From contig JAKSPQ010000002.1 in the NCBI GenBank assembly GCA_024404665.1, positions 1 through 38,830 of the forward strand: a stretch of 38,830 nucleotides of DNA, written 5' to 3'. Positions 3,336 through 20,714 of this stretch are shown here, in pieces. Both the position numbers and the translations under genes were made by a program. The notes beneath the pieces were generated by a model. The model was not told the DNA's origin, made no database searches, and worked only from the letters and a program-made list of their open reading frames with translations. The stretch's first letter is position 1, and the number at the start of each line of letters is the position of its first letter. This DNA comes from Clostridia bacterium. Lineage in GTDB: Bacteria; Bacillota; Clostridia; Oscillospirales; CAG-272.

Positions 3336-3371
3336 GTTTCTCTCTCCTTTCACTTACGGACAGTCCTTTGG

Positions 3372-3470: not shown

Positions 3471-3543
3471 GAAGAAGTTTACTGTCCTTCGGGCCTGAAA
3501 AAGAATAAAGAGCCGTACCGTGCGACGGAATACGGGTTTCTGT

Positions 3544-3585: not shown

Positions 3586-3618
3586 AATCAGCATGGGTTA
3601 TTTATCCCCTGAAAACCG

Positions 3619-5046: not shown

Positions 5047-5079
5047 GTTTTTCCGTCCTTTGCTGTGTTTTTTTGAATA

Positions 5080-5562
5080 TCAGAGGAAGCTCGCGATAAG
5101 CAGCCAGCTCTTTTTATCGAGTGCTCCGAGGCTCTCGATTTCGTAACGGTTATCGTCGGAATCGCGGATTATGACTCTGTCGGGATCGTAAATCTTCATG
5201 TCGTTATGGCGGTTTCTGACTCTGAAGGACGTATGTCCGTGGTCTGTTTCCGCCGAAATCTTAAGCATTCCGGTTTTGTCGTTGCATTCCGTGATTTTGA
5301 GTATTTTGGGGATGAGGTAGTAATCGTTGAAGCAGGCTTTGACGGCGGCTGCGGACTCCTCGGTAAGGTCGGAATACGACTTTATTACGGCTATTTCCTT
5401 TTCCCCTTTGTCGATAACCGAAATCCAGTGGTCTCTGTCGGAGATGGGGAAGAGTCTGCGGAGCTCGGCGTTTTCCCATACCTCTCCGTTCATTTCGAGT
5501 CTGACCGTGTAAACATCCGTGATCGTGATGACAGCGGATTTATCAAGATAAATTCTCTCCAT
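5080..5562 (-). CDS. DUF1854 family protein (ABC-exporter-associated).
   Basis: RLFPISDRDHWISVID...EIAVI...L...YLIPKI..I...........ETDHG...F.....D..I.....RVIIRDSDDNRYEI..L..LDKKS matches the DUF1854 pattern as I remember it. GGAGG lies 7 nt upstream, and the gene starts 12 nt after the ABC gene stop. Confidence 0.75.
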   Translation of the reverse strand: MERIYLDKSAVITITDVYTVRLEMNGEVWENAELRRLFPISDRDHWISVIDKGEKEIAVIKSYSDLTEESAAAVKACFNDYYLIPKILKITECNDKTGMLKISAETDHGHTSFRVRNRHNDMKIYDPDRVIIRDSDDNRYEIESLGALDKKSWLLIASFL

Positions 5563-5574
5563 GGTTCCGCCTCC

Positions 5575-7857
5575 TCATTCGAAGTGGTGCTCAGCCTTTG
5601 CGGCGTTGAGCTTTTCGGACATAGACTGAATTTCCACGAGCTTGTAGTATTTGCCCTTCATGGCAAGAAGCTCCTCGGGAGTGCCGCACTCAATGATCGA
5701 ACCGTTGTCAACAACGACAATCTTGTTGGCGCGGGAGAGGGTTGACAGTCTGTGAGCTATCATGATGGTTGTTCTTCCGGCTATCAGGCGCTCAATAGCT
5801 TCCTGGATAAGGTGCTCGGTCTCGGAGTCGACGGAAGCCGTGGCTTCATCGAATACAAGCACGGACGGATTGCGGAGAACCGCTCTTGCGATGGAAACTC
5901 TCTGGCGTTCACCGCCGGACAGACCCACGCCTCTTTCACCGAGGACGGCATCGTAGCCGTCGGGCTGGCGAACGATGAAGCTGTGAGCGTTGGCGATATC
6001 GGCGGCCTGAATAACTCTTTCAACGGGGCAGTCGTTGAGACCGTACGCGATGTTGTTGAATATCGTGTCGTGGAACATAAGCGGCTCCTGCTGAACAAAG
6101 CCGATTTGTCCGCGGTAGTATTCCATATCGATGTCGCGTATATTGACACCGTCGACGAGAATTTCGCCGTCGTAGTTGTCGTAATAACGCAGGAAAAGGT
6201 TCACGAGCGTGGATTTTCCGGAGCCCGTGGTACCAACGATGCCGACAACATCGCCGGGTTCTATGGTGAGATTGATATTTTTCAGGGTTTTCTTGGTCCT
6301 GTCGAACGAGAAGCTGACGTTTCTGAACTCAATCTTACCCTTCATTTCGGGAAGGACGTTGCCCTTTCCGAAGTCGTGCTCGGGCTCGGCGTCAAGAATA
6401 TCGAGAATTCTTTCGGCTGAAGCGAGCGCGTGCTGGTAGGAGTCGTTCAGGTTGGCAAAGAAGTTTACGGGCTCGTAGAACATGGAGGCATAGGAGATGA
6501 AGGAGGTAAGCAGACCTGCGGTCATGACCGTGCCGCCGACAGTTGTGGAGCCGCTTATAACCATGTTGCCGCCGAACCACCAGATGACGATGGAGCCGAG
6601 ACCTATGCAGGTTCCGACAACGGCGGGGAAGGCGTGAAGAATGGTAGCGGCGGAGGCATCGGTTTCATACCATGCCTGATTCTTCTTTTTGAAGCGCTCT
6701 GTGGAGTTCTTCTCGTTGGTAAAGGATTTTACTACTCTTATTCCGGGAATCGTGTCCGTGAGGACGGAGGTAACGGCGGTCCATCTTGCCCAGATGCGGA
6801 GATAGAACGGACGGATCTTCTTGGAGAAGATTCTTGCGCCGATGACGACGATCGGAACGGGAATGAGGGAGAAAAGCGTCAGTCTCCAGTCCTTTATGAG
6901 CATGATGGCGATGATGCCCACCATTTTGAAGAACTGAACCACGACCTCCTGAGAAATTCTCAGCATAAAGGCCTGGATGGTGTTGGAGTCTCCGCTGATT
7001 CTGTTGATTACGGCACCCGTGGATGTCTTGTCGTAGAATCGCATGGGGAGGTACTGAGCCTTTTCGTAAACGTCGTTCCTGATTCTGAGAACGACTCTGT
7101 CACCGACTTTTCTGAGCATGATGCCGCGCAGGCAGCCGATAAAGTGGCTTAAGAACTGAATTCCGATAAGGATCAGCGCCACCTCGATCAGTCCGTCTCT
7201 GCGGTTGTTCGGCAGAATGTCATCGATGAGGTTTTTGTTGAGCGTAGGGGGAATAAGAGCAAGAGCTGTGGTTGCCACAGAGAAGATAACGGAAATAATC
7301 AGCACCTTCCATTCGGGAGTGATGTATTTCAGAAGCTTCTGTGCGACCTGTTTTTTGCTTGCGCAGTGGATGCATTCTACTCCGGGAGAAGAGAGGGCGC
7401 GTCCGCATTTCGGACATACGCTCAGCTGCTTTTCGTAAACGGCTTCGACACAGGCAAAGGCCTCGGCGGCATCCTCGCCGTTAATCATGGAGTTGATGTA
7501 GGTTGCGGCGCTCTCGCAGAGAGTGTTGACCGCGAATGTGTAGCGGAAGATGTTTACTATGTCATCGTTCTGAAGGGTAAGTCTGAGTATGGCGTTTCCG
7601 TACATGCGCTTGTTCTGTGCGCTCTTGATATCGGAGAACGATACTCTTTGGCCCTCGTGGCCGGTATCAAACTCGTAGGTCATTATGTCGCAGTCGCTGA
7701 CGAGCAGCGCAGAGCGGCAAAACTCGGACTTGATTGAAATACCGCCGATTACGGCAAAGAGCCAGGGATGTCCGGGAGCTTCAAGGCTGCGAACGGCTTG
7801 GATTTCTGCAGCTGTGAGAGATGTGTTTGTAAGAAGCTCCGTTCTTTTTTCTTCCAT
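5575..7857 (-). CDS. ABC exporter (permease and ATPase) with an extra cytoplasmic N-terminal domain of about 175 aa that ends in a C4 zinc ribbon.
   Basis: Walker A GTTGSGKST, signature LSGGERQRVSIARA, Walker B VLVFDEATASVD and H-loop MIAHRLST are all canonical. The N-terminal region contains CPKCGRALSSPGVECIHC (DNA 7363-7416) ahead of the first TM helix. Confidence 0.9.
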   Translation of the reverse strand: MEEKRTELLTNTSLTAAEIQAVRSLEAPGHPWLFAVIGGISIKSEFCRSALLVSDCDIMTYEFDTGHEGQRVSFSDIKSAQNKRMYGNAILRLTLQNDDIVNIFRYTFAVNTLCESAATYINSMINGEDAAEAFACVEAVYEKQLSVCPKCGRALSSPGVECIHCASKKQVAQKLLKYITPEWKVLIISVIFSVATTALALIPPTLNKNLIDDILPNNRRDGLIEVALILIGIQFLSHFIGCLRGIMLRKVGDRVVLRIRNDVYEKAQYLPMRFYDKTSTGAVINRISGDSNTIQAFMLRISQEVVVQFFKMVGIIAIMLIKDWRLTLFSLIPVPIVVIGARIFSKKIRPFYLRIWARWTAVTSVLTDTIPGIRVVKSFTNEKNSTERFKKKNQAWYETDASAATILHAFPAVVGTCIGLGSIVIWWFGGNMVISGSTTVGGTVMTAGLLTSFISYASMFYEPVNFFANLNDSYQHALASAERILDILDAEPEHDFGKGNVLPEMKGKIEFRNVSFSFDRTKKTLKNINLTIEPGDVVGIVGTTGSGKSTLVNLFLRYYDNYDGEILVDGVNIRDIDMEYYRGQIGFVQQEPLMFHDTIFNNIAYGLNDCPVERVIQAADIANAHSFIVRQPDGYDAVLGERGVGLSGGERQRVSIARAVLRNPSVLVFDEATASVDSETEHLIQEAIERLIAGRTTIMIAHRLSTLSRANKIVVVDNGSIIECGTPEELLAMKGKYYKLVEIQSMSEKLNAAKAEHHFE

Positions 7858-8149: not shown

Positions 8150-8599
8150 TCAGATTGAAGCGATTTCGTTGAAGATATCGCCTATTGTGCCGAATTCTCC
8201 GGAAGCGATGAGAGCACCCATGGCGCAGCCGTAGAGGGCGTAGAGGATAGTGGAGATAATGCCGAGAATGAGACCTACCGTGCAGAGAATCTTGGCGACC
8301 TTGAGCTTGCCTGTGAGCGGAACGCCCTGAGCGACAAAGCCCTTTACCTTCTTCTTACCGACAGCGGCGAGAATGATGCCGACAACGGTGCCGAAGACGA
8401 GCGAGAGAATGCCGAGTACGAGCGCGGGAGTGGTGTTTACCTGCGGGGCGGGAGTATAAGCGGGCTGTGCCGCCTGCTGATAAACCGGCTGTTCGGGAGC
8501 GGGCTGTTTGGGCTGAGCCGAAGCCTTGAGATTGGCTCCGCAGTTGGGGCAGAAGGAAAGACCGTCTTCTGCGTGTGAACCGCAATTGGGACAGAACAT
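8150..8599 (-). CDS. Zinc-ribbon membrane protein.
   Basis: N-terminal MFCPNCGSHAEDGLSFCPNCG (double CxxC), a Pro/Gln-rich linker, then 2-3 hydrophobic helices. RBS AAGAGG. Confidence 0.7.
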   Translation of the reverse strand: MFCPNCGSHAEDGLSFCPNCGANLKASAQPKQPAPEQPVYQQAAQPAYTPAPQVNTTPALVLGILSLVFGTVVGIILAAVGKKKVKGFVAQGVPLTGKLKVAKILCTVGLILGIISTILYALYGCAMGALIASGEFGTIGDIFNEIASI

Positions 8600-8649: not shown

Positions 8650-8820
8650 TTTGGTCTGCTTTTAATGGTTGGCTTTTTTCAGAGCCTGCTCTTCTTTCAG
8701 AGCCAGCTCTTTTTCAGAGTTTGATCTTTTTTCAGAGTCAGCTCTTTTTCAAAGTCCGCTCTCATTAATAGTTTGCGCTTTTTAATAGTCCGCATTTTTT
8801 ATGGTCTGTGATTTTAGTGC
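8650..8820. repeat. Degenerate tandem array of about 10 units, each 17-18 bp, with consensus GCTCTTTTTCAGAGYYW.
   Basis: The best-conserved units end at 8684, 8702, 8719, 8737 and 8754 (...ttcagag or ...ttcaaag). Flanking units decay to ...ttaatag, ...ttatgg and ...ttagtg. Each core unit contains the dyad GCTCT-ttttc-AGAGC. Confidence 0.8.
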
Positions 8821-8964: not shown

Positions 8965-9906
8965 TCAGCAATCTATGAAATCGCGGAGAAAATCCGCTAT
9001 GCTTGCGTCGTATTTTTCCTGCTCTGCCTGTCTCACTCTCGAGTGGCCGCCGTGATCGAACCATACCACGCGCTTTTTTGCGGTGCATTTTTCAAAGATT
9101 GCGGAGGATTTCTCGGGGAGAGAATAAATATCCTCCCTGCTGTGAAGGAAAAGAATCGGCTTTTTAAGCTTTTCGATTCTCTTGAGCGGTCCGTTGGATA
9201 TGACTCCTGCGTGAGCTCTCAACGAAATGATTGCCATCACGCCGTAGAGAAGCGGAAAAGTGGGCTTATTCATATCCTTCATGTGATTGCCGAAGGTTTC
9301 GCAGAAGTTTATGTACATGCCTTCCGCCGCCATTCCGTTTATGTAATCGGGACAGCCGGCCGATGTGAGAGCATTCAGAGCATTTGAGGAGCCTATGCAG
9401 ATTCCGTGAATGAATATTTCGCGGTTACCGAGCTTATCGTGAAGCAATTCCGCCCATTTCAGTGTGTCTCTGTATTCGACGAGTCCCACCGAATTGAAGG
9501 TTCCCTCAGAGAGACCGTGAGATCTCTGATCGATAACAAGGACGTTTCTTCCGCATTTTCTGTACGGCTCGGCGAAATAGAGCGAGTAAAGAAGCGATTC
9601 CGTTCTGCCGGGAAGAATAATTACGGCCTTGTCGAAGCCGAAATCGTAATACTCGCCGACAAGCTTAAACCCGTCGTTTTCGATTTCGACGTCGCGCTTT
9701 ACGTCGGCGTGCGCTTTTCCCCAGGCGACGCCGTCCTCGAACATGCGTACCATTACCGGATCTTCCGGAGCAGAGCATTCGCGTCCCCATTTTTCGGGCT
9801 TGTTTCTGACCATGAGGACCGAGTATAGAATGAATGAAAGGAGAACCATCGGAGCTATTCCGAAGATTATTACGGCAAGAATGATTATCGTGACGATCGG
9901 TGGCAT
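8965..9906 (-). CDS. Membrane-anchored alpha/beta hydrolase with Cys at the nucleophile-elbow position.
   Basis: N-terminal TM helix. The oxyanion-region block is AVIILPGRTES. The nucleophile elbow is HGICIGS (G-x-C-x-G). The protein is a paralogue of the hydrolase at 14000-14962. Confidence 0.75.
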   Translation of the reverse strand: MPPIVTIIILAVIIFGIAPMVLLSFILYSVLMVRNKPEKWGRECSAPEDPVMVRMFEDGVAWGKAHADVKRDVEIENDGFKLVGEYYDFGFDKAVIILPGRTESLLYSLYFAEPYRKCGRNVLVIDQRSHGLSEGTFNSVGLVEYRDTLKWAELLHDKLGNREIFIHGICIGSSNALNALTSAGCPDYINGMAAEGMYINFCETFGNHMKDMNKPTFPLLYGVMAIISLRAHAGVISNGPLKRIEKLKKPILFLHSREDIYSLPEKSSAIFEKCTAKKRVVWFDHGGHSRVRQAEQEKYDASIADFLRDFIDC

Positions 9907-9932
9907 CTGTCAGCTGGTCCTTCCTGTGATAA

Positions 9933-11573
9933 TTAAACCGCGCAGATTATGTATCTGTATATTTCCTGGTATCCGTCAAGGAAGGAAATATCCGCGAGCG
10001 GAAATGATGCGGAGACTGTTTCGGCGAGTGCTTCTTTACCTGCCTCGTCAGCGGGCTCGGCGCAGAAGACGATGAAGGTTTCGGCATCGGCGATATCGGG
10101 AAGTCCCGTGAGAGCGATTCCGGCAGCGGCCTCCGGAGTGTCGGCAACTGCGACGATTTCCCCTCCGGATATTGCAATGGCCTTTCCTGCGGAAATTCTG
10201 AAGCCGTGCATTTCGGAATCCCGCGAAGCCGTCGCTATAGCCACGGATTTAACGGTTTCGATTCCCGTCTTCATCTGAGAGATTCTGTAATCGGGGTCGG
10301 TGCTGTCGACAACGTCCATGGCGAGCGCATAGTAGCCCTCCGCCATTCCGGGTGCCTCAAGCACCTCGACTCTTGATTCCTTGTACATTGATGCCGCCTG
10401 TCTTGCCGCAAAGTAAATGTTTTTGCTGCACGGCAGCACAGCTACGGTCTCGGCGTTTGCCAGCTTGAAGGCGGCGATGAATTCCTGCGATGACGTATTC
10501 ATCGTCCTTCCGCCGTCTATTACGATTTCGCAGCCGAGCTCCGAAAAGATTTTTTTCATTCCGTCCCCGTTCACTACTGCGATGCGGGCGAATTTGGAGC
10601 GGGGCTTTTTTGCGGTTTTGGCTATGTGCTCGTTGTGCTGCAGCTGCATGTTGTCGAGCTTGAAGGACAGAAATTCACCGAATTCTCTTGCGAGGGCGAT
10701 TATCCTTTCCGGTCTTTTCGTGTGAACGTGAACCTTTATTCTGGTCCCGTCCTTCACGACCACGAGAGAATCACCGAGCTTCGAGAGCTCGGACGTAAAG
10801 GCATCCTCGCGGAAGCGGTGGTTGTATCCCGCTCCGTTCATGAGCTGAAGGATGAATTCGAGGCAATAGCCGTATTCGAACGTGGAATCCGCATCGAAGA
10901 ACGAGAGGTCCGGCCCCTGCGGCTTTTCGGTCGGAGCGGTCGATTCGGGAGTGGATACGAGCTCTCCCCTGAGGGCTCCGAGCATTCCCTCGGCTATGAC
11001 AATGAAGCCCTTGGCTCCGCTGTCTACGACTCCTGCCTCCTTGAGAACGGGAAGAAGCTCCGGAGTCATGGCGAGGCTTTTCTTCATTTCGGCTATGTAC
11101 ATAGCGAAAATGGAATCGATTGAGGTGTTGCGGTCGAGCTGTGAGCGTATGTGCTCTATGCCCTCTCTGGTAACCGTGAGGATTGTGCCCTCAGCGGGCT
11201 TTAACACCGTTGAATAGGCTGTTTTATATCCTCTGATGAGAGCGTTTCTGAGTTCGGCGGGACCCACCCAGGGTTCGCGGGCGAGCTCCGCGGCAATGCC
11301 CTTGAAAATCTGCGAGAGTATTACTCCGGAATTGCCTCTGGCTCCCAGAAGCATTCCTTCGCTTACGCCCTTCATATATGTGCCCGCATCCGCTGAGGAG
11401 ACTGCTTTTTTCAGTCCGTTTTCGAGCGTCAGGCGCATATTTGTTCCGGTGTCTCCGTCGGGAACCGGAAAAACGTTCAGATCGTTAATCTCGGCTTCAT
11501 GGGTCTTTATGTTCGAAAGACCGCCTGCAAGCATTTTTTCAAGGTCCGTACCGTTGATTTTTCTTATTTTCAC
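9933..11573 (-). CDS. fakA: Fatty acid kinase ATP-binding subunit FakA (DAK2-domain protein, YloV family).
   Basis: 546 aa. The N-terminus MKIRKINGTDLEKMLAGGLSNI...VFPVPDGDTGTNM is the YloV/FakA Dak2 signature. The start codon is GTG. Confidence 0.8.
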   Translation of the reverse strand: MKIRKINGTDLEKMLAGGLSNIKTHEAEINDLNVFPVPDGDTGTNMRLTLENGLKKAVSSADAGTYMKGVSEGMLLGARGNSGVILSQIFKGIAAELAREPWVGPAELRNALIRGYKTAYSTVLKPAEGTILTVTREGIEHIRSQLDRNTSIDSIFAMYIAEMKKSLAMTPELLPVLKEAGVVDSGAKGFIVIAEGMLGALRGELVSTPESTAPTEKPQGPDLSFFDADSTFEYGYCLEFILQLMNGAGYNHRFREDAFTSELSKLGDSLVVVKDGTRIKVHVHTKRPERIIALAREFGEFLSFKLDNMQLQHNEHIAKTAKKPRSKFARIAVVNGDGMKKIFSELGCEIVIDGGRTMNTSSQEFIAAFKLANAETVAVLPCSKNIYFAARQAASMYKESRVEVLEAPGMAEGYYALAMDVVDSTDPDYRISQMKTGIETVKSVAIATASRDSEMHGFRISAGKAIAISGGEIVAVADTPEAAAGIALTGLPDIADAETFIVFCAEPADEAGKEALAETVSASFPLADISFLDGYQEIYRYIICAV

Positions 11574-11643
11574 TGTAAACCGAAGCTTCTTTCAAGTATT
11601 TCTGATTTGTTTCGGGTGCGATGATGATTACGGAATGCCGTCT

Positions 11644-12987
11644 TTACCGGTCGGCCTTTCCCATTTCGGAAACCGATGCCGGCAGCATGAATGACAGAGC
11701 GAAGGAGACAAGGGTGCCTGCCGCGCATATGAGCGTCATATACACAACCGCGCTGACTCCGCCGATTTCGGTTTTCTTGAGAGCCGTGAGGACGAGTCCC
11801 GTCGCGATTCCGGAGGCGATGCCGGAGAAAAGCCCCTGTACCGCAAAGTACATTGCGGAATGAGATATGCCGGTGCGCGCTTCCTCATCGGCGGCGAGCT
11901 GAGCCGGGACCGAGTATGCGACGGCGAACATCGCTCCTATGGCAAAGGAGGAGATGAGGCCTCCCGCAACCGAGCATATTGTTTTTGGCAATCCTGCGGG
12001 CACGAAGTTGCCGATGAAGTACATCATCGTCATTCCGGCCGTGTATGTGAGAAGAATATATCTGAAGGCGAAGGCAAAGCCCTTTTTCTTCAGTATGCGG
12101 TTATAAAGAACAAGGGTGAGCGGAACGGGTGCGAAGGAGCAGGCCATGACGACAATCATGCTCATGCCGACAACGGAGAAGAACTCGTTGATTCCTCCGA
12201 GGAATAGCTGAACTCCGAAGGTCATAAAGGAGTAAACAATCATCCAGAGTATGAAATCACGGTTTCTGAACGTGATCGAGAGCGATTTTACAAGGCCTAC
12301 GGTCTTTTTTTCGCCGGATACTCCGTTTGAATCCCTGTTTGAAGGCTCCTTTATCATAAAGAGCGGAATCAGAACGGTCAGGGAAAGCGGAGCCACTGTG
12401 AGGGCAACCGTCTTTATGTTTACCGAGTTGAGCATCGCTCTCACAACAACATATCCCAGAATGAAATAAACTATGTCAAAGAACGATTTTACGTTGGAAA
12501 TCAGGTTCCTCGCATCGATATTGTCCACGATTTCGGTGAATGTCGCGTAGTACGTCACCATCGTGAGAGTATAAAAGCTGTAAAAAACACAGAGGAGAAC
12601 GCCGTAGTATACCGTATTGAGCAGCGTTGCTCCGTCATTGGGCGCAAAAAGGAACAGGAGATATGCGGCGAGCATCGGAACAAATCCCAGGACAATCGAC
12701 GGACGGCGTCTGCCGAAGCGTGATTTCAGCCTGTCCGTAAAGGAGGCCATGGGAATATCGATGACACCGTCGATGACCTTGGCGACAAAAGCGAAGATCG
12801 CCCAGACACCGGCAATGACGAGATCTTTGCCCGCAAAGGTCTGAAAAGGGACCGCGCTTTCGGAAAAGCCTCCGATTATCAGAGCGCTGCAAAGATAGGA
12901 GTTGAACATTAAACCGAGCATATTGATGCCCATTCCCGCTGCCGCGTAAAGGAACATCTGCCATTTTTCAGTCAGCTTTTTCATCAT
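11644..12987 (-). CDS. MFS-superfamily permease of the GPH (glycoside-pentoside-hexuronide-like) type. Substrate unknown.
   Basis: About 12 TM segments. The loop 2-3 motif is DGVIDIPMASFTDRLKSRFGRRRP (GPH pattern D..D.P.G...DR...R.G+RRP). RBS GGAG. Confidence 0.75.
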   Translation of the reverse strand: MMKKLTEKWQMFLYAAAGMGINMLGLMFNSYLCSALIIGGFSESAVPFQTFAGKDLVIAGVWAIFAFVAKVIDGVIDIPMASFTDRLKSRFGRRRPSIVLGFVPMLAAYLLFLFAPNDGATLLNTVYYGVLLCVFYSFYTLTMVTYYATFTEIVDNIDARNLISNVKSFFDIVYFILGYVVVRAMLNSVNIKTVALTVAPLSLTVLIPLFMIKEPSNRDSNGVSGEKKTVGLVKSLSITFRNRDFILWMIVYSFMTFGVQLFLGGINEFFSVVGMSMIVVMACSFAPVPLTLVLYNRILKKKGFAFAFRYILLTYTAGMTMMYFIGNFVPAGLPKTICSVAGGLISSFAIGAMFAVAYSVPAQLAADEEARTGISHSAMYFAVQGLFSGIASGIATGLVLTALKKTEIGGVSAVVYMTLICAAGTLVSFALSFMLPASVSEMGKADR

Positions 12988-13014
12988 ATTCTCTTTCTCC
13001 GTGCGTCCGGCGCG

Positions 13015-13956
13015 TTATTTTTTGGAAAGAGATGCGGCTATATCCGCAAAGCTTTCCTTTTCGGCGGATAGGTCGGGAGCAATGGCAGTTCCGAAATAGT
13101 AGGAGGCCATGAGGCCGGGACCGATGTTGATTCCGTTGTAGGGATGAACATCGCCGATGATAACCTCGCGGGGCTTGATTCTTTCCTCAATGAGCTTCTT
13201 GTATTCGAGAGCCTGGGGATATCTGCAGGTCTGAGCGATGAAGATGAGCTGCTCCGAGGGATTTACGATGGTTTTTTCCATGTATGCGATCATTGTGGCC
13301 ATGGCAGCCTTGGCGCCCGTTGCCTTTGTGAGGACTGTGGTAAGTCCGTTGGCGCCGAACTCGCCGAGGGGCTTGACGCCCGCAAGAGTGCCGAAGAAGG
13401 CCTTCGCATGTGTGATGCGGCCTTTTTTGGCGACAAAGCTCAGGTCATCGAGCCAGCCGGACTGTCTGAAACAGTTCTTGTTGGCTTCGAGCCATTCGGT
13501 GATTTCCGCGCAGGATTTTCCTTCGTCGCGGAGCTTTGCGGCATAAATCGCAATGAGTCCTACGCAGGGACCGAATCTCAGGGAGTCGACGCAGCCGACG
13601 GAGGCCTCGGGATGTCTTGCGAGTACATTGGCTGCGGCGGCCTTAAGGAAGCCGTAGGAGCCGGAAATTCCGGAGGAGATGGTGACGACTACAACGTCGT
13701 TGCCGGCGGAAACGAGCTCCTCGAGCTTGTTTTCGAATTCCTGAACATTCGGAGGAGACGTCTTGTAATCATCGGGGTGTTTTTTGAGGGCAGCATAGAA
13801 GGCATCGCGTTCTTCGGGCTTCCACTCAAGGAAGGCATCGGCATTGTCGTTGCCGGGAACGCTGATGTGGCCGATGATGATATTAAGGCCGTATTTCTTC
13901 TGAAGCTCCGGCGATAAATCGGAGGATGAGTCGGTGAGAATTGCAACAGGTCTCAT
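13015..13956 (-). CDS. DegV family fatty-acid-binding protein (FakB-type).
   Basis: MRPVAILTDSSSDL...TSPPN...ISSGISGSY matches DegV motifs. I chose the start at 13956. The longer ORF to 14076 would overlap the upstream gene by 77 nt and adds an implausible basic leader. Confidence 0.8.
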   Translation of the reverse strand: MRPVAILTDSSSDLSPELQKKYGLNIIIGHISVPGNDNADAFLEWKPEERDAFYAALKKHPDDYKTSPPNVQEFENKLEELVSAGNDVVVVTISSGISGSYGFLKAAAANVLARHPEASVGCVDSLRFGPCVGLIAIYAAKLRDEGKSCAEITEWLEANKNCFRQSGWLDDLSFVAKKGRITHAKAFFGTLAGVKPLGEFGANGLTTVLTKATGAKAAMATMIAYMEKTIVNPSEQLIFIAQTCRYPQALEYKKLIEERIKPREVIIGDVHPYNGINIGPGLMASYYFGTAIAPDLSAEKESFADIAASLSKK

Positions 13957-13999
13957 TTTTGTTGTCCTTTGTTTTTTATTTTGTTTTCTGAGTAACGCT

Positions 14000-14962
14000 T
14001 TATCTGAACGGACGTGACTCTGCGGTTTGCATTTTTCCGCAGACTGAGCTGTCTGCCGAAAGCAGGGAGGCGGCAAGCTCCTTAATCTGCTCTCCGGAGG
14101 CCAGACAGCTGCAGGCGTGCTCCGCGCCGACAGCGGTGAAAAGGCCGACGGAGCCCGGACAGACCGAGCTCATTTTTTCCACATCACCGTATGAAACGGT
14201 TGTGTCCCTGTCTCCGCACAGGAAAAGTATGGGGGCGCGGGCATTCGAAAGAGGCCCTGTGACTGCCTTTCCGAGATCCTCGCCGGCGAGCAGCTTTCCG
14301 AAGACGAGCGCCGGAGGAATTATGAGAAAGGACGGCAGGTGCATTTTCGCGCACATTCTCTTAAGCTGCGCTTCCGGGGATATGAACGGGCAGTCTATTA
14401 TGAGCGGTATTCCCGCAAGCCTGTCCGACGCGAAAGCTACCGATGTGCCTCCGAGGGAAATGCCGTATACCGCCGCTACTCTGTGCCCCTTTGCTTCAAG
14501 GAGATTTCTCCACGCGACGACGTCGTCGCCCTCACGGATTCCGAGCGTCGTGAAGCGTCCGCCGCTTTTTCCGTGGGCTCTCTGCTCGGGAATCAGCACC
14601 GCATATCCGAGATCCAGGAAGATTCCGGCAGGCGTGCTCACCGAGCATTCCGGATCCGCTCTGTAGCCGTGCATCAGAATGACCGTGTTCGGCCTTCCCG
14701 GCGAGAATAGACGTCCGGAGAGGACCGTGCCGTCCGCGGATACGCATTCGGTATGCTCGCATTCCGTGGCCAGCAGTCGGTCGCGCGCGTCGGATATTTT
14801 GCCGACAAAGGGGGCATAGTAGCTGTTTGCAAGCAGCTCTTCGGAATACTCCCTGTATGAGGACCTTCCGAAAACCGCCATGAACGATATGAATGTGGGT
14901 ATTATCGAGAAAAAAACGAAAAACAGTATTATTGCAGCGAGGGTTATCAGTATGAACTTCAT
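14000..14962 (-). CDS. Membrane-anchored alpha/beta hydrolase (Ser nucleophile).
   Basis: N-terminal TM helix, the block VILMHGYRAD and the nucleophile elbow YGISLGG. Its ATG overlaps the stop of the LRAT-like gene (ATGA). Confidence 0.8.
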   Translation of the reverse strand: MKFILITLAAIILFFVFFSIIPTFISFMAVFGRSSYREYSEELLANSYYAPFVGKISDARDRLLATECEHTECVSADGTVLSGRLFSPGRPNTVILMHGYRADPECSVSTPAGIFLDLGYAVLIPEQRAHGKSGGRFTTLGIREGDDVVAWRNLLEAKGHRVAAVYGISLGGTSVAFASDRLAGIPLIIDCPFISPEAQLKRMCAKMHLPSFLIIPPALVFGKLLAGEDLGKAVTGPLSNARAPILFLCGDRDTTVSYGDVEKMSSVCPGSVGLFTAVGAEHACSCLASGEQIKELAASLLSADSSVCGKMQTAESRPFR

Positions 14963-15438
14963 TTGAGACGCGAATTGTCCTTTCCGCCCGGCTCGGCTGT
15001 TTTCACCGGGATTTTATCGTTTTTGTTTTTTCCTGAGAACAGATGCTCCCAGTGCCTTCTTACTGTTTCCTCTGCGGTGCATTTTGCCTTGCCCATGGCG
15101 CATTCCCAGACAAAATGCTCGCAGTTGTTGTGCAGAAGGCTGTAACCGCCCTCTCCGAGCCTGCTTCGTGCCCGGCTTACGGTTTCTTCGGGGGAAAAGC
15201 GTGATTTGCGCTCTCCCTTTTCGCACACGCCGGTTTCCACGATTTTTCCGGCTGAGAAAACGTCGATGTCGGTCGATATGACCCTGATTTCTGCATCGTC
15301 CCTGAAAAGACCGCCCGTAGGGGGCAGACCGAAGGCGATTACCTCGCTGTCGGAAACAAAGATTCCGTAATGATAAATGCTTCCGATGCGGACTCTTATC
15401 ATGTCTCCTGTCCGGCATTCGCCCGGAATCCATTTCAT
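14959..15438 (-). CDS. LRAT/PLAAT-like (NlpC/P60 superfamily) thiol acyltransferase or phospholipase.
   Basis: GDMIRVRIGSIYHYGIFVSDSEVIAFGLPP and LLHNNCEHFVWEC line up with the vertebrate LRAT blocks GDLIEI...HWAIYVGDGYVIHLAPP and LLVNNCEHFV. Its ATG overlaps the ACP stop (ATGA). Confidence 0.65.
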   Translation of the reverse strand: MKWIPGECRTGDMIRVRIGSIYHYGIFVSDSEVIAFGLPPTGGLFRDDAEIRVISTDIDVFSAGKIVETGVCEKGERKSRFSPEETVSRARSRLGEGGYSLLHNNCEHFVWECAMGKAKCTAEETVRRHWEHLFSGKNKNDKIPVKTAEPGGKDNSRLK

Positions 15439-15686
15439 TTTGTCTTTTCTCCGATGAAGTCCACCACGTCGCCTACGGTAACAAAGCTTCCGAGTCCGAC
15501 GCTGTCGAATCTGATTCCGAACATTTCCTCTATCCCGATGACGGTGTAGAGCATTCCCACCGATGAGAATCCGCAGTCCTCGCGGAGTCTCAGGCCTTCG
15601 TCGAGCTCTCCCTCGAGAAGCCCTGAGTCGGCGTCCGTGAGAGAAAGAATTTCTTTGAGTTTTGCTTTTATTTCCTGTCTTTCCAT
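15435..15686 (-). CDS. Stand-alone acyl or peptidyl carrier protein.
   Basis: 83 aa and acidic, with DCGFSSVGML (the DS-type phosphopantetheine attachment motif) at the expected position. Confidence 0.8.
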   Translation of the reverse strand: MERQEIKAKLKEILSLTDADSGLLEGELDEGLRLREDCGFSSVGMLYTVIGIEEMFGIRFDSVGLGSFVTVGDVVDFIGEKTK

Positions 15687-15703
15687 ATGCGTTACCTCGT
15701 TAA

Positions 15704-17206
15704 TTACTGTTTCTTTCCGTGGCGGAGAATCTTCATTGCGGGAGTACGGGGGAAGTCCGTATCGCGGATGCAGAGTCTGTTGTACCGCTTATATGCGGGA
15801 AGGGAGGCATTGACCTCCTCGATCATGGCTCTGAGCCGACCCGCGCGCTCTTCCTCGGGAAGCTTTCCGAGCTCCGTCATTCTCGGGAGAACCTCGAGAA
15901 CCAGTACGGAGGAGCCGTTTTCGGTTTTGTCCTCATAGAGCTCGCAGTCCTGAACGCAGTTCAGCGCGGAGAAGGAGGCTTCCACCTCGGCGGGAGATAT
16001 GTTTTCGCCGTTCGGAAGAACGATTATTTCTTTGATTCTTCCCGTGATGTAGAGGAAGCCGTCGTCATCGATTCTGACAAGATCACCTGTCCTGAACCAG
16101 CCGTCCGTGTATGCGGCCGAGTTATCGTCGCCGATGTATCCGTCCATCATGTTTTCGCCCTTCAGCCATAGCTCTCCGTCCTCAATTCTGTATTCCATTC
16201 CGGGATACATGATGCCGACGGAATCGGGCTTTTTGAGGCTCTCGGGGTTGCCGGAAACAAGGTTTGCGGATTCGGTGAGACCGTATCCGGGAAGCAGCGT
16301 AATTCCCATCGAAGCGTATTCCCTGATAAGATATGGCGGAACGGCCGCGGCACCGCAGATTATAGTCCTGAGGTCCTGCCCCAGCATGTTTCTTCCGAAT
16401 TTTTTCGAGAGAGTAAGCGCCATTTCGGCGAGCGCCGGAACCATTACCATAATTGTGGGGCGGAAAACGGCTATGTCTCTGAACATATCCTTGTTGCTGC
16501 GGCAGATGAAGAGGGTGCTTCCCGTGTAAAGGGACGTCATGAGGTTTCTGATGAGTCCGAAAACGTGCGAGAAGGGAAGAACAAGAAGATATTTCTGTCC
16601 GAAAACGTCTTTTATTCCGTAGCAGCCGTTAACGGTTCCGCGCATGAACGCTCTGTTCGAGAGAACCGCGCCCTTGCTCTTTCCGGTGGTTCCGCCGGTA
16701 AACATGATTACGGCGGGAACGTCCCCCGGGACGTCGGATGCCGGGACGGGCTCTTTTCCGCTGTCCGCGGCGCTGATGATTTTTACGTTCGGCGCGGCTT
16801 TTGAAAGAACCGACATCCTGTCGGCTGTTTCGTCAGTGTGGACGACGGCGGCGAGCCCCAGCTGCATCGAAAGGCCGTAAACCGCCTCGGCCGGAAGTCC
16901 CGCGGGCATGATGAGGCAGGTTTTTCCGGCGGTTACGGCGGCTATAAAGGCCTTGACGAAGCCGTAGGAGTTCGGCGCGATGATTCCGATTCTTCCTCCG
17001 TCCGGGAGAAGGCCGCGGAACAGGGCGGCATCGCTCTCAAGCTCTGCGAAGGTGTGCGTTTCTCCGCCGTCGTTTATCGCGACGGTATCGGCGTATTCGG
17101 CGGAAACCTTTCTCCACATATCGGAAACCGAAGAACAGGGCTTGATTCTGTCAAAAACCTCGTCCGTCGTGTATTTTCTGAATATTTCTGCTGATGCTGT
17201 TTTCAT
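15704..17206 (-). CDS. AMP-binding (ANL family) acyl-AMP or acyl-carrier ligase.
   Basis: P-loop FTGGTTGKSKGA, GYGLTES, WFRTGD...GRIKE...GENISP and a C-terminal Lys (TPAMKILR). I chose the ATG at 17206 (AGGAG 8 nt upstream) over the longer ORF to 17260. Confidence 0.85.
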   Translation of the reverse strand: MKTASAEIFRKYTTDEVFDRIKPCSSVSDMWRKVSAEYADTVAINDGGETHTFAELESDAALFRGLLPDGGRIGIIAPNSYGFVKAFIAAVTAGKTCLIMPAGLPAEAVYGLSMQLGLAAVVHTDETADRMSVLSKAAPNVKIISAADSGKEPVPASDVPGDVPAVIMFTGGTTGKSKGAVLSNRAFMRGTVNGCYGIKDVFGQKYLLVLPFSHVFGLIRNLMTSLYTGSTLFICRSNKDMFRDIAVFRPTIMVMVPALAEMALTLSKKFGRNMLGQDLRTIICGAAAVPPYLIREYASMGITLLPGYGLTESANLVSGNPESLKKPDSVGIMYPGMEYRIEDGELWLKGENMMDGYIGDDNSAAYTDGWFRTGDLVRIDDDGFLYITGRIKEIIVLPNGENISPAEVEASFSALNCVQDCELYEDKTENGSSVLVLEVLPRMTELGKLPEEERAGRLRAMIEEVNASLPAYKRYNRLCIRDTDFPRTPAMKILRHGKKQ

Positions 17207-17283
17207 ATGCGTAACTCCTGTCAGGATTGGGATTCGGAGAGCCGTCCGAAGAACGGACACCGCCCGCCGTGATTTATTTCGGG

Positions 17284-17961
17284 TTAATGCCCGGCGTATT
17301 CCGCAAGGGCTTTTTCTTTTTCTATGATGTATGAGGCCGCCTCGTTGATTTTGGCAAACGAAGGCCTTTCGCCGCAGAAGGCGGCAAGGTCTATCGGCTC
17401 TCCGAATACGGCTTTGACTCTGCCGAAGGGCTTTTTCCTTTCGGTGAGGAGCACCGGAAGCACGGGAACGCCTGCCTTCAGCGCCATAAGGACCATGCCG
17501 GATTTGAAGCCTCCGATCGGGTTGCCCTCCGTGTCGATATGTCCTTCCGGGAACATTGCCACGGCGCAGCCCTCACCGAGCCTGTCGGTAATCTGTCTGA
17601 ATGAATCCATGCCGAAGTTTTCCCTGTCCACGGGAATTGTAAGAAAGCTTCTGAACCAGAAGGCTGATGTGCGCGATGCCCAGAACTCCTTCATGCAGAC
17701 GAATCTCAGCCTTCTTTCGGGAATGAGCATCATGAGGTCTATGGGATCGGAAAAGCCTATGTGATTGGATACAATCAGCATTCCACCGCGAAAATCCGGC
17801 TTTTTTCCGGCGTATATTCTTTTGGGCCTGAAAATAATGAGGCCCGGAGCAGCGCTTATACGTATCAGGTCGTAAAGCAGATATCCGAATGAGAGCACGG
17901 GAGCTTTCTTGGGCTTTGCCCCGTTTTTTTCACCGCTTTTGCTGTTATTGGTTTCAGGCAT
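17284..17961 (-). CDS. PlsC-family (LPLAT) acyltransferase, copy 2.
   Basis: The HX4D motif is SNHIGFSD and the FPEG motif is MFPEGH. Confidence 0.85.
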   Translation of the reverse strand: MPETNNSKSGEKNGAKPKKAPVLSFGYLLYDLIRISAAPGLIIFRPKRIYAGKKPDFRGGMLIVSNHIGFSDPIDLMMLIPERRLRFVCMKEFWASRTSAFWFRSFLTIPVDRENFGMDSFRQITDRLGEGCAVAMFPEGHIDTEGNPIGGFKSGMVLMALKAGVPVLPVLLTERKKPFGRVKAVFGEPIDLAAFCGERPSFAKINEAASYIIEKEKALAEYAGH

Positions 17962-17982
17962 GTTGTCTTTTCCGTTTCATGT

Positions 17983-18618
17983 TTATTCGGCCTCGGTAAG
18001 GGGGCGGAGCTCCGAGACTAGGTCTTTAAGCTTTGCGCTCACCAGCCGGAGATTTTCGGCGTCGCCCGCGGATTCATCGGCGAGATCCGCTGCGAATACG
18101 GGTGTTCCTATCGCAACTCTCGCGCGCTTTCTTCCGAAGTACGAGCCGTTTGTGTAGACGGGTATAACCGGCGCTCCTGTGGCCAGAGCCAGCGCCGCGG
18201 CTCCGGACCTGAATTCAAGCGGACGTTCCTCTTCCTTCCGGGGGATTCTTCCCTCGGGGAAAATCAGGACGGTTCCGCCGTCGGAGATAACGTCCGCGCA
18301 TTCGTCGAGGCCGGCAAGCGTATGCGAGTTTCTGTCGATTTTTATTCCGCCCATTGCCTTCAGGAACGCTCCGAGCGGCTGCTTTTCGAACAGAACCTCC
18401 GCCATGGGAACCCTGAGAGTTCTGCCGTAAAAGACGAAGATCCATACCGCGTAATCGTAAACCGAGGTATGATTGGATACTATGATTGCCGGCCCGCGTA
18501 TGCCCCTGCCCTGAACCGCGCGGTCTTTGTACGAGACCTTGGTTCTGAAGCAGCAGTACTGAACGGGGAAGCCCGTGACCTTTGCGAAGCCGTTTAAAAA
18601 TCTAATCAAGCTTTTCAA
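17983..18618 (-). CDS. PlsC-family (LPLAT) acyltransferase, copy 1.
   Basis: The HX4D motif is SNHTSVYD and the FPEG motif is IFPEGRI. The start is uncertain: a TTG at 18618 with a weak RBS, overlapping the upstream gene by 17 nt. Confidence 0.8.
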   Translation of the reverse strand: MKSLIRFLNGFAKVTGFPVQYCCFRTKVSYKDRAVQGRGIRGPAIIVSNHTSVYDYAVWIFVFYGRTLRVPMAEVLFEKQPLGAFLKAMGGIKIDRNSHTLAGLDECADVISDGGTVLIFPEGRIPRKEEERPLEFRSGAAALALATGAPVIPVYTNGSYFGRKRARVAIGTPVFAADLADESAGDAENLRLVSAKLKDLVSELRPLTEAE

Positions 18619-20560
18619 GTGATTTTTCCGAGTATTCGTAGATTTCTTTTATTGTGGACAGTCCGTCCGCGGAAGGAGGAAAGGCTATTCCCAGCTCTTC
18701 TCCCAGAAGAGCGGTAAGGGCGGCATATTCGAAGCTTGAGCCTCCGCAGTCCGTAAAGAAGTCCGCGGTGTCCGACGCTTCTCCGGAGAGGCGCAGCACG
18801 GACATGAATGCTTCCCTGATTTTTTCGTAGAGCACCGGATTTCCGGCCTCCGTACGGACGGTGCCGAAGGAGAATCTTTCGAGAGCTCCCGACGATATGT
18901 TTCCGGCAATCTTTTTGCGGTTCAGCTTGAAATCGCCGTCTCCGATAAGCTGCGACGGTGTTACGAACACCTCCGCTATCAGGCCCGAAAGACCTGCCGA
19001 GGCAATTCTGCCGTTTACTGCATCGCGGATTTTTTCTACAGCCTCCGCGGTAAGATATCTGCCGACGGAAACCGCGAGCACGGGAACCGTGCCGCCGTTT
19101 CGCTTAACTCCGCAGAGACAGACGGACGAGGCTCCGAGACCGTCAAAGAGAGGCTCGATGATGTTGGGGTTCAGGTTTTCTCCGCCGGGACCGATGACGA
19201 GCTCGTCGCTGCGGCCGAGAACGTACAGCCTGCCGCTTTCATCGATGCGGGCAAGGTCGCGCGTGTCAAAGTCCCGCGGAAGCGGGACAGATGCGCCGTC
19301 GGAGACCGTATAGGCCGCTTTTGAAATTCCTGAGGAAATCAGAGTTCCTTCGGCATTCACCGAGTATGCGGCGGACGGCAGAGGGATTCCGGCGGAGCCG
19401 CTGCACAGTGTGTCAAACCGGTTCGAAAGCTCGACCGAGGTTATTCCGGTCTCAGTCATTCCGTACCCGTTCGCAAGCCTGTAGCCTATTCCGTTGAAGA
19501 ATTCGAGAACGTCCCGGCCTATGCCGGCGCCTCCCGTAATCATGAAGCTTATGCTCTCTCCGAACAGCTTCTCCCTGACTTCACGGAAGGCCTTTTTGCG
19601 GAATGCTGCGGAAAGAACGGGGATAAAATCAAGCTTTTTCGCTATTCCGAGTCCTTTTTCGAACCTTGCGGCGGTTTTTTCGCCTCTCGCCTCTATTTCC
19701 TTCATTGCGGCGGAGTATGTCTTTTCCCAGAAGAGCGGGACCGCGAAAATGTGTGTCACGCCGTGTCTCTTTATTGTGTCGGTGACGGTTGACGGCGAGA
19801 GATCCCCGAGCTTTACGAAGGTCCTGGAATAAAACGCGAACCACATGTAAACCGCCGTAAGGCCGAAAATGTGGCAGAAGGGAAGAAGCGCAAGGAGCTT
19901 GAGCTCTCCGCGGAAGTGCCGTTTCATGAGCCGGCTTTTCCTGATTATTTCCGCGCTGTCAAGAAGCTGGGCCTTTATCTGCGACGCTGTGTAGGCACAG
20001 CACTTTACGCTGAACGAGGTTCCGGACGACATTACGAGTATTGCGCTTCCGAACGGACTGCCTTCCGGGAGCTCCGAAGGAGAGCCGATGCCGTCAGCCG
20101 TGACGGTTTCGCAACCGTCAAAGCGTACTGCTTCCAGAGGGACGGTTCCGTCCGTGATTATCGCCTTTACGCCGATGCCGCGAATCGCCTTTTCAAGCAC
20201 GGGAACTCCGAGCCTCGTGTTTATGAGTAGAGGCTTAAAGCCCGCCCGAAGCGTTGCCCAGAGGAGCTCGATGAACAGCGGACCGTTTTCGGCTGCAATT
20301 CCGATTACGGAATCCGCCGGAAGGGAAGCAAAGCGCCCGGCAATCATGCATGACAGCTCAAGAGCTTTTGCGTAAGCTTCTCCGTAGGTGGTTTTCGCTA
20401 TGCGGTATCCCCGGCTTTCCTCCCAGAGAATATTTTCCTTCTCGGCGAACATGAGAGGGAATATGTCGTCAAAGCGTTCTCCGGTGTTCTTCAAAAGGGT
20501 CAGCCTATGTTTTACAAAGCTGTTTATATTGCCGTACCCTCCGAGATTTTTAAGCCGCAT
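18602..20560 (-). CDS. AMP-binding ligase fused to a C-terminal carrier (thiolation) domain.
   Basis: GYGMTETG, ...TRDLARIDESGRLYVLGRSDE...GGENLNP, then a C-terminal FFTDCGGSSFEYAAL (GGxS phosphopantetheine motif). AAGGAG lies 7 nt before the ATG. The gene ends with TAG. Confidence 0.85.
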   Translation of the reverse strand: MRLKNLGGYGNINSFVKHRLTLLKNTGERFDDIFPLMFAEKENILWEESRGYRIAKTTYGEAYAKALELSCMIAGRFASLPADSVIGIAAENGPLFIELLWATLRAGFKPLLINTRLGVPVLEKAIRGIGVKAIITDGTVPLEAVRFDGCETVTADGIGSPSELPEGSPFGSAILVMSSGTSFSVKCCAYTASQIKAQLLDSAEIIRKSRLMKRHFRGELKLLALLPFCHIFGLTAVYMWFAFYSRTFVKLGDLSPSTVTDTIKRHGVTHIFAVPLFWEKTYSAAMKEIEARGEKTAARFEKGLGIAKKLDFIPVLSAAFRKKAFREVREKLFGESISFMITGGAGIGRDVLEFFNGIGYRLANGYGMTETGITSVELSNRFDTLCSGSAGIPLPSAAYSVNAEGTLISSGISKAAYTVSDGASVPLPRDFDTRDLARIDESGRLYVLGRSDELVIGPGGENLNPNIIEPLFDGLGASSVCLCGVKRNGGTVPVLAVSVGRYLTAEAVEKIRDAVNGRIASAGLSGLIAEVFVTPSQLIGDGDFKLNRKKIAGNISSGALERFSFGTVRTEAGNPVLYEKIREAFMSVLRLSGEASDTADFFTDCGGSSFEYAALTALLGEELGIAFPPSADGLSTIKEIYEYSEKSLEKLD

Positions 20561-20714
20561 GGGGTTGCTCCTTAAATTAATCTAAATTATATCTTGAAAT
20601 ATTGACATATATAATTATTATATCACAAAACCGTCGGGACCGCAACAAAAAACGGTGATTTATGCATTTTTCTTTTCTTTTTTTGATTTTTTGTCAAAAG
20701 TTTGGAGAAACCAC

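Follow-up and report, generated by a model that had tools for sequence, protein, structure and literature searches.

Gene content of the locus

The first 38,830 nucleotides (nt) of contig JAKSPQ010000002.1 (Clostridia bacterium, assembly GCA_024404665.1) were analysed as a whole and are called the window below. On the minus strand they carry an operon in which two adenylate-forming ligases, carrier proteins, two PlsC-type acyltransferases, an LRAT/PLAAT-like enzyme, two alpha/beta-fold enzymes and a permease are encoded together with FakA and a FakB-type protein. Comparison with other genomes shows that this operon is a genuine, obligatorily co-occurring functional unit of 11 or 12 genes, widespread in Clostridia of gut and rumen. 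The genes, numbered g1 to g12 in the direction of transcription, and the signals ahead of them are as follows (Pfam or other matches in brackets).

20561-20650, minus strand: probable operon promoter with ribosome-binding site (recognised by reading the sequence)
18602-20560, minus strand: g1, adenylate-forming ligase fused to a carrier (T) domain, 652 amino acids (aa) (Pfam AMP-binding 3.8e-30, PP-binding 5.6e-07)
17983-18618, minus strand: g2, LPLAT/PlsC-superfamily acyltransferase 1, 211 aa (PF01553 1.6e-21)
17284-17961, minus strand: g3, LPLAT/PlsC-superfamily acyltransferase 2, 225 aa (PF01553 2.4e-16)
15704-17260, minus strand: g4, stand-alone acyl-CoA-synthetase-like ligase (AMP-binding 3.1e-53 and AMP-binding_C_3)
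15435-15686, minus strand: g5, stand-alone carrier protein, 83 aa (weak NCBIfam matches to acyl carrier protein, ACP, only)
14959-15438, minus strand: g6, LRAT/PLAAT-like Cys-His acyl enzyme, 159 aa (PF04970 2.2e-18)
14000-14962, minus strand: g7, membrane-anchored alpha/beta hydrolase, 320 aa (weak Pfam hydrolase matches; G-I-S-L-G)
13015-13956, minus strand: g8, DegV/FakB-type fatty-acid-binding protein, 313 aa from the ATG at 13956 (PF02645 7.9e-51)
11644-12987, minus strand: g9, MFS_2 (GPH-type) permease, 447 aa (PF13347 7.7e-28)
9933-11573, minus strand: g10, FakA fatty-acid kinase catalytic subunit, 546 aa (Dak2, FakA-like_M and FakA-like_C)
8965-9906, minus strand: g11, membrane-anchored alpha/beta-fold enzyme, 313 aa (Abhydrolase_1 2.2e-10)
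8150-8599, minus strand: g12, Zn-ribbon protein with two transmembrane (TM) helices, possible accessory member, 149 aa (Zn_Ribbon_1 and a faint DUF4190)

An open reading frame (ORF) check of the window returned eleven minus-strand ORFs from 20560 to 8965, exactly where a first-pass annotation of this DNA had placed them. Scans with the Pfam and NCBIfam hidden Markov models bore out the domains assigned to all eleven genes, with all catalytic motifs intact. The reported overlaps are real as well: 4 nt at both 15435-15438 and 14959-14962, and 17 nt at 18602-18618, where the start of g2 runs into the end of g1. The statement that all other gaps measure 77 nt or less is correct with the starts of g4 reset to 17206 and of g8 to 13956, as suggested by the lengths of their orthologs. 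The g4 ORF comprises 518 aa, of which 500 are left from the probable start ATG at 17206, and the g8 ORF reaches up to 14076.

Within the region put forward as promoter (20561-20700) an extended -10 promoter can be read on the minus strand. It consists of TTGCGG at 20645-20640, a 17-nt spacer and TG-A-TATAAT at 20625-20617, and AAGGAG, about 7 nt ahead of the g1 ATG, forms the ribosome-binding site. A consensus promoter scan did not list the TTGCGG/TATAAT site because its -35 hexamer fits at 3/6 bases only. The hairpin claimed after 8965 did not hold up: the sequence folds no better than shuffled sequence (z = +0.89), and a terminator-pattern scan found no intrinsic terminator after this position. 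The GC content of the operon is that of its flanks, and neither Rfam families nor tRNAs were found in the window.

The unit probably extends to a twelfth gene, g12. Among the 69 complete loci described below, 24 have this gene after g11, and a related Zn-ribbon family adds about six loci. The spacer between g11 and g12 measures 365 nt in the window against 13-45 nt in several relatives. Inside this spacer lies an 18-nt tandem repeat of about five copies (8675-8762, consensus TTTTTCAGAGTCAGCTC on the plus strand).

Distribution and conservation of the operon

Scanning 185,579 species genomes (one genome per species) yielded 229 species-representative genomes with a relative of g1. They belong to Ruminococcus, Lachnospiraceae, Oscillospiraceae, Acutalibacteraceae, Christensenellaceae, Mageeibacillus and others, and most are metagenome-assembled genomes from rumen or gut. 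Cultured examples are Ruminococcus sp. JL13D9 and JE7B6 and Ruminococcaceae bacterium P7 (FMUA01), and the operon is also carried by the complete genomes NZ_CP162392.1 and NZ_CP162391.1. With g1 as query, protein clusters numbering more than 1,100 were matched. All were clostridial, and beyond the window the top match reached 62% identity. A whole-library search found 282 representatives at E <= 1e-30, and most among the 150 listed have a length of 630-660 aa. Among the second-tier relatives (about 33-37% identity to g1), those near 35-37% that a metagenome scan reached sit in the same operon type. The idea that more distant g1 relatives might occur among other, more telling neighbours was rejected for this reason.

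The twelve window proteins were mapped onto 166 fetched loci, of which 69 were long enough to judge. All 69 complete loci, which come from other genomes, show the same gene order (69/69). The first-pass annotation had made its proposal dependent on co-conservation in relatives, and the genes indeed behave as one unit. The genes flanking the operon vary by lineage; the first three neighbourhoods inspected already showed the same gene series between unrelated flanks. Five genes (g1, g2, g8, g10 and g11) are present in 100% of the complete loci, followed by g7 (97%), g5 (96%), g6 (87%), g4 (83%), g9 (61%) and g12 (35%), while g3 is a separate gene in 94% and is fused to g2 in the remainder. A third alpha/beta hydrolase is located downstream in about 18 loci. 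This gene and the Zn-ribbon membrane gene are the only recurrent neighbours of the operon, no other being consistent across lineages. Catalytic motifs are invariant throughout the 51-85 orthologs compared per protein, a sign that the enzymes are active.

Paralogy is also seen among the window proteins, with identities of 29% for the pair g1/g4, 27% for g2/g3 and 29% for g7/g11. Since ligase, carrier, LPLAT and hydrolase each occur twice, the operon looks like a duplicated module to which an LRAT-like enzyme, FakAB and a permease are added. By this arrangement, an ancestral module for one chain seems to have been doubled so that two acceptor positions could be served.

Ligases and carrier proteins

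The first gene, g1, clearly encodes an ANL acid-thiol ligase with a carrier and not an amino-acid A domain. Its AlphaFold2 model (pLDDT 87.8) shows an ANL fold plus a carrier domain, and 85 orthologs show no variation at P-loop Lys185, catalytic Lys544 or carrier Ser608. The protein is very divergent, with MenE, 4-chlorobenzoate ligase (4-CBL) and FadD13 as weak sequence relatives. A fold search for its substrate gave generic ANL matches that do not separate fatty from aryl acids. In NCBIfam and the PDB g4 comes closest to long-chain fatty-acid-CoA ligases (FadD13, FcsA), and its motif DGWFRTGD is of the fatty-acyl-CoA-synthetase type. The proposal that both ligases activate fatty acids would fit the resemblances of g4, but is unproven for g1, whose nearest relatives are MenE, 4-chlorobenzoate ligase and EntE.

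Activation of amino or aryl acids had been named as the outcome that would speak against this proposal. For amino acids it is improbable on sequence grounds: the amino-acid adenylation model TIGR01733 gives 27.5 bits for g1 and 103 bits for g4 against a cut-off of 317, and the A4 motif is without Asp in both proteins (LPFCHIFGL in g1, LPFSHVFGL in g4). The two ligases are of the acyl/aryl-CoA-synthetase type. One g1 relative of 1087 aa (P0356, 33% identity) combines ligase, carrier and a BioF/serine-palmitoyltransferase (SPT)-like pyridoxal-phosphate (PLP) enzyme, and this fusion gives a weak hint of aliphatic acyl substrates.

The stand-alone carrier g5 obtains 16-28 bits with the NCBIfam ACP models, far under their cut-offs of 66-146, and is therefore not the housekeeping AcpP. 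The Ser of its GFSS motif is invariant in 73/73 orthologs.

Acyltransferases and the LRAT/PLAAT-like enzyme

Both PlsC-type proteins retain their catalytic motifs throughout: NH-x4-D and FPE[SG]R are invariant in 82/82 orthologs of g2, and HX4D in 80/80 orthologs of g3, where FPE[GS]R is likewise invariant. In the PDB g3 matches PlsC of Thermotoga (5kym, 1.1e-06). Four loci (L106, L117, L122 and L152) carry g2 and g3 fused into one protein with two PF01553 domains, which argues that the two act together. These PlsC-PlsC fusions measure 424-433 aa (L106:4058-5344, L117:11908-13209, L152:2358-3632), and L106, L117 and L122 are without the second ligase and the permease too.

With PF04970 the g6 protein scores 67.1 bits (gathering score 24.3). 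Its PDB matches are PLAAT2/3/4, it aligns to PLAAT3, and His23 and the Cys of NCEHF (N-C106-E-H) are invariant in 68/68 orthologs. It has no hydrophobic segment that could serve as a C-terminal membrane anchor. A C-terminal extension is present on 46 of 67 g6 orthologs, all of one family and homologous to Sfp-type phosphopantetheinyl transferases (PPTases). The extension is full-length in about 35 orthologs, with the motifs FSLSH, GIDIE and WTxKE and matches to Pfam ACPS and to NCBIfam AusB, EntD, AcpT and HetI, and shortened in about 11; the other 21, including the window, have lost it. Examples of the LRAT-PPTase fusion are found at L040:14944-15978, L002:13481-14542 and L152:5459-6595 and in about 40 other loci, such as L015 and L045. 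The shortened form (about 280 aa, without the GIDIE/WTxKE half) occurs in about 11 loci of Ruminococcus type. The first-pass remark that no PPTase is encoded in the window is right as far as it goes, since a search of all six frames of the whole 38.8 kb found neither a PPTase nor a remnant of one; yet most relatives carry a PPTase fused to the LRAT gene. A literature search found no published report of LRAT together with a phosphopantetheinyl transferase.

Alpha/beta hydrolases

The two alpha/beta-fold proteins are the only ones with an N-terminal membrane anchor (TM helix at residues 1-33 in g7 and 1-35 in g11), g9 being polytopic and g12 having two helices. Both match the Pf2001 esterase 5g59 in the PDB (5e-11 for g7, 5.6e-11 for g11). 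They differ in the nucleophile: the triad Ser169-Asp253-His282 is invariant in g7 (70 orthologs), whereas g11 has an invariant Cys170-Asp259-His288 triad, with the Cys of H-G-I-C-I-G found in 51/51 orthologs. In alpha/beta-fold enzymes such as BAAT and polyhydroxyalkanoate (PHA) synthase, Cys as the nucleophile is associated with acyl transfer, and g11 would for this reason be a transacylase rather than a hydrolase. Invariant Arg and Lys residues follow its anchor, which would place the catalytic domain in the cytoplasm by the positive-inside rule. In every case g11 is found immediately downstream of fakA.

FakA, FakB and the permease

On sequence grounds g10 and g8 can be assigned as FakA and FakB, as claimed before, both passing the family cut-offs with the full domain set. 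With TIGR03599 (FakA, YloV) g10 reaches 484 bits against a cut-off of 396, and with TIGR00762 (DegV) g8 reaches 182 bits against 99.7. The PDB matches of g8 are S. aureus FakB1 (about 2e-17). Close homologs of g10 lie in the same operon in 2/2 contexts checked.

Among the proteins of the set the permease g9 shows the highest conservation (median identity 64%). It scores 97.6 bits with MFS_2 and 28.7 bits with MFS_1, the latter under the cut-off of 33.4. A phmmer search found no sequence match in the PDB. With the AlphaFold2 model (pLDDT 78.8), however, the four best Foldseek matches in the PDB are MFSD2A lysolipid symporters (E 2e-9 to 1e-8), followed by MelB. Close homologs of g9 were found in the same operon in 2/2 contexts checked and in every fetched locus carrying one.

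A second MFS_2 gene is located directly between g1 and g2 in six loci (L087, L089, L090, L107, L141 and L150). It is full-length in five of them (about 620-645 aa; for instance L087:2624-4504, L107:11946-13829 and L150:11937-13874 with 626-645 aa) and a 384-aa ORF in L141. Three or four extra C-terminal helices are present on the three full-length copies examined; homology of this extension to g12 was considered and rejected, as there is no similarity. In L150 the two halves of the operon have changed places, and permeases of both types occur. Taken together, the operon linkage of g9, the second MFS_2 gene between g1 and g2 and MFSD2A as best model match make the link to a lipid transporter stronger than the first-pass annotation had claimed.

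Comparison with known systems

The cluster had initially been likened to a split and duplicated Aas/LplT system. As family membership this does not apply, because no gene reaches the Aas or LplT models; the likeness is functional only. Against the Aas models NF005959, NF006386 and NF005291 (cut-offs 886, 1221 and 1349 bits) g2 scores 17-50, g3 26-62 and g4 118 bits. PlsC and ligase form a single polypeptide in Aas but are separate genes in the window, and the fusions seen among relatives are ligase-carrier, PlsC-PlsC and LRAT-PPTase, never PlsC-ligase. LplT is MFS_1-type by Pfam, whereas g9 is MFS_2, with MFSD2A and MelB as nearest structures. In the known system LplT flips a lysophospholipid and Aas re-acylates it (PMC11416262). 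The operon resembles it in combining the gene of an MFS permease, here putatively for an amphipathic lipid, with those of a PlsC-type acyltransferase and a ligase of the kind that forms acyl-carrier thioesters; some operon variants are even ordered ligase-carrier, MFS, PlsC, PlsC. It differs in the use of private carriers and an own PPTase instead of AcpP, in being duplicated throughout, and in the addition of FakAB, a PLAAT-like enzyme and two membrane hydrolases. Also, LplT-Aas is a Gram-negative system whereas the operon hosts are Gram-positive.

The likeness to FakA/FakB of Firmicutes is closer, as g10 and g8 pass the YloV and DegV cut-offs and g8 resembles the S. aureus FakB1 structures. 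The usual place of fakA, however, is in the vicinity of recG and asp23 and apart from acyltransferase genes. Here its neighbours on either side are a permease and a Cys-triad alpha/beta enzyme, and it shares an operon with thioester-forming ligases.

Individual proteins can be compared to mammalian counterparts. The catalytic His and the NCEHF Cys of PLAAT/HRASLS and LRAT enzymes are retained in g6, which also matches PLAAT structures, but it is without the C-terminal anchor, and most orthologs have an Sfp-type PPTase at that end. The sodium-lysophosphatidylcholine symporter MFSD2A belongs to the same Pfam family as g9 (MFS_2) and is the best structural match to its model; identity to g9 is 14-16%, and MelB sugar permeases score nearly equal.

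Two bacterial pathways share the principle of a dedicated carrier. In Clostridia, a dedicated ACP receives exogenous fatty acid from a stand-alone A domain and then serves a transferase (PMC13310621, citing Chang et al.). This OaaA/OaaACP/OaaC system has in common with the operon its occurrence in gut Clostridia and the combination of an adenylating enzyme, a dedicated carrier and a separate transferase to a small acceptor (PMC13310621). In contrast to it the operon is without a condensation domain and has two modules plus FakAB, hydrolases and a permease. No cluster protein has a Pfam match to the free-standing condensation domain that marks the fatty-acid-amide pathway. Instead, the presence of LPLAT, PLAAT-like and Cys-alpha/beta transferases implies ester rather than amide products. 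In Rhodobacteria a dedicated ACP plus ligase serves sphingolipid synthesis, so that a private carrier and ligase feed one specialised lipid pathway apart from AcpP (PMC9386255), as may be the case here. That system differs by its PLP-dependent Claisen condensation by serine palmitoyltransferase and by its occurrence in other taxa; among the g1 relatives one distant protein (P0356) has such a fusion.

A full-text literature search found no paper on this gene combination, in agreement with the first-pass statement that no characterised operon has this composition. A survey of gene clusters in inflammatory bowel disease does not mention the operon families, and a transcriptomics paper on R. bromii turned out to be irrelevant to the operon.

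Other features of the window

Downstream of the operon (189-7857, minus strand) two ABC exporter genes (544 and 760 aa) flank a DUF1854 gene; between the same exporters lie a DUF4129 protein (1869-3353) and a 475-aa protein without Pfam match (3619-5046). A PSP1-domain protein of 589 aa is encoded at 24930-26699 (minus strand), with PSP1 at residues 351-436 and a long N-terminal part without Pfam match. At 27861-32612 (plus strand) an ABC ATPase, an ABC-2 permease, an ABC_transp_aux/DUF7088 protein and a DUF4340 protein form a GldG-like auxiliary set, and these four genes are syntenic with locus L001. A GyrB/ParE-like ORF of 793 aa at 34392-36773 (minus strand) has the DNA_gyraseB, Toprim and C-terminal domains in Pfam, with no HATPase_c match at E <= 0.01. 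Its first 130 or so residues are rich in Lys and Ser, and the true start may therefore be located downstream.

Interpretation

The best explanation we can offer, held tentatively and at slightly less than an even chance, is a carrier-protein-dependent system that esterifies scavenged acyl chains onto a (lyso)lipid acceptor and is coupled to FakA/FakB. Most likely the acceptor is a lysoglycerolipid or another glycerol-based backbone that ends with two acyl chains. Carrier dependence is indicated by the two carriers with invariant Ser and by the Sfp-type PPTase fused to g6 in most orthologs. From the observed domain identities and co-conservation we infer the fatty-acid substrates, the acceptor, the transacylase role of g11 and the order of the steps. 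The Ser hydrolase g7, and the PLAAT-like g6 where present, would free or shuttle acyl chains from complex lipids, and g8 and g10 would trap the free fatty acid as acyl-phosphate. Where present, g9 would import or flip the amphipathic acceptor, in the way that lysolipids are handled by MFSD2A and LplT. The ANL ligases would load carboxylic acids as thioesters, g1 onto its own T domain in cis and g4 onto g5, with the carriers presumably primed by the Sfp-type PPTase fused to g6 in most relatives. The acyl groups would then be transferred by g2 and g3 to two acceptor positions. As a transacylase, g11 may link the FakAB acyl-phosphate or the acyl-carrier thioesters to the pathway.

Several observations weigh against this explanation. 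Gene content is not constant, as g9 is missing from 39% of the 69 loci, g4 from 17% and g6 from 13%, and the whole g4-g5-g6 block is absent in some (L041, L121); the two fixed modules of the first-pass annotation are too rigid for the same reason. The best fold matches of the g1 model are MenE, EntE-EntB fusions and 4-CBL, not fatty-acid ligases, and judged by sequence and model g1 may activate an acid of another kind. With the AGPAT model TIGR00530 g2 and g3 reach 62.5 and 57.2 bits, under the cut-off of 102.95, which makes the glycerolipid acceptor an assumption. The margin of MFSD2A over MelB in the g9 model is small. In addition, the explanation accounts neither for the coexistence of acyl-phosphate and acyl-thioester activation nor for the joining of an LRAT-like domain to a PPTase.

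Alternatively, the operon may encode a specialised-metabolite pathway, similar to non-ribosomal peptide synthesis. In it, g1 would activate an acid other than a fatty acid, whether aryl, hydroxy, dicarboxylic or short branched, and its T domain would retain this acid as scaffold or head group. Then g4 and g5 would supply the fatty acyl donor, the LPLATs, g6 and g11 would build and release an acylated ester or amide, the MFS permease would export it, and FakAB would merely feed fatty acid. We consider this somewhat unlikely. Both in sequence and in structure g1 matches MenE, 4-CBL, EntE-EntB and CahJ best, and some of its orthologs are publicly annotated as 'non-ribosomal peptide synthetase'; the carriers diverge from housekeeping ACPs and have their own Sfp-type PPTase, as in biosynthetic gene clusters. 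The patchy occurrence of the operon (229/185,579 species genomes) and the g1 relative joined to a BioF/SPT-like PLP enzyme fit as well, and clostridial fatty-acid-amide clusters share the logic of A domain, ACP and transferase working with exogenous fatty acid (PMC13310621). On the other hand, no Pfam match to condensation, reductase, thioesterase-domain or ketosynthase families was found among the cluster proteins, whereas the two LPLATs, the PLAAT-like enzyme, FakAB and the MFSD2A-like permease are all membrane-lipid enzymes. An optional permease would be odd for a product exporter, and a GC content like that of the flanks, together with synteny with a distant relative, points to resident, core-like metabolism. 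There is a smaller chance, such that we would call it unlikely, of a so far unrecognised two-position 'Lands-cycle' on private carriers, common to hundreds of gut and rumen Clostridia species, with g11 and the PLAAT-PPTase fusion representing new acyl-transfer chemistries and an undescribed lipid class as outcome. For example, FakAB acyl-phosphate or phospholipid acyl groups would be moved onto the carriers without a ligase. The product would be a membrane or host-active lipid class made from dietary or host fatty acids.

That the operon simply performs housekeeping phospholipid synthesis from exogenous fatty acids, in lineages with reduced de novo fatty-acid synthesis, seems improbable. FakAB would provide acyl-phosphate for PlsY here, and the ligases, carriers and PlsC-like enzymes would replace AcpP-dependent acylation of glycerol-3-phosphate and lysophosphatidate. 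This would agree with the canonical scores of FakA and DegV, with the resemblance of g3 to Thermotoga PlsC, with the housekeeping genes that neighbour the operon in the window and with the location of the closest FakA homologs checked inside the operon, which may thus hold the sole fakA. It agrees less well with the small fraction of Clostridia species that have the operon, with the scores of g2 and g3 under the AGPAT cut-off and the distance of the carriers from AcpP, and with an operon without plsX or plsY in which the hydrolases, PLAAT-like enzyme and PPTase fusion would have no role in a de novo route. Free unsaturated fatty acids are toxic and abundant in rumen and gut, and LRAT-family enzymes esterify alcohols. 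An operon that detoxifies or buffers such acids by esterifying them to an inert storage or neutral lipid, from which hydrolases release them again, would match the strong rumen and gut bias of its members, the presence of both capture (FakAB, ligases) and release (hydrolases) functions and, by analogy, the alcohol esterification by LRAT-family enzymes. We nevertheless rate this as quite improbable: no wax-ester or DGAT-type enzyme and no regulator are present, the two private carriers and the permease remain unexplained, and the argument is purely inferential. Finally, chance adjacency of unrelated same-strand genes has a practically negligible probability and can be regarded as already refuted by the 229 genomes, the identical order in 69/69 loci from many families with differing flanks and the fusion of members to one another; start and stop codons of neighbours overlap too.

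Significance

How anaerobic Firmicutes of gut and rumen use dietary and host lipids is poorly understood, FakAB being the sole well-studied route. The operon physically joins FakAB to acyl activation through thioesters, to transport of the lysolipid type and to acyl-transfer enzymes of three kinds, and it is common in fibre-degrading Ruminococcus and Lachnospiraceae. From the viewpoint of enzymology the fusion of a PLAAT-like domain with a PPTase and the Cys-triad alpha/beta enzyme that is always paired with fakA are candidate novelties. If the operon serves to remodel membranes with exogenous chains, as in the explanation we favour, it would bear on fatty-acid toxicity, on the ecology of biohydrogenation and on the effects of feed fat in ruminants. 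If it makes a distinct lipid, it would be a candidate source of host-active microbial lipids.

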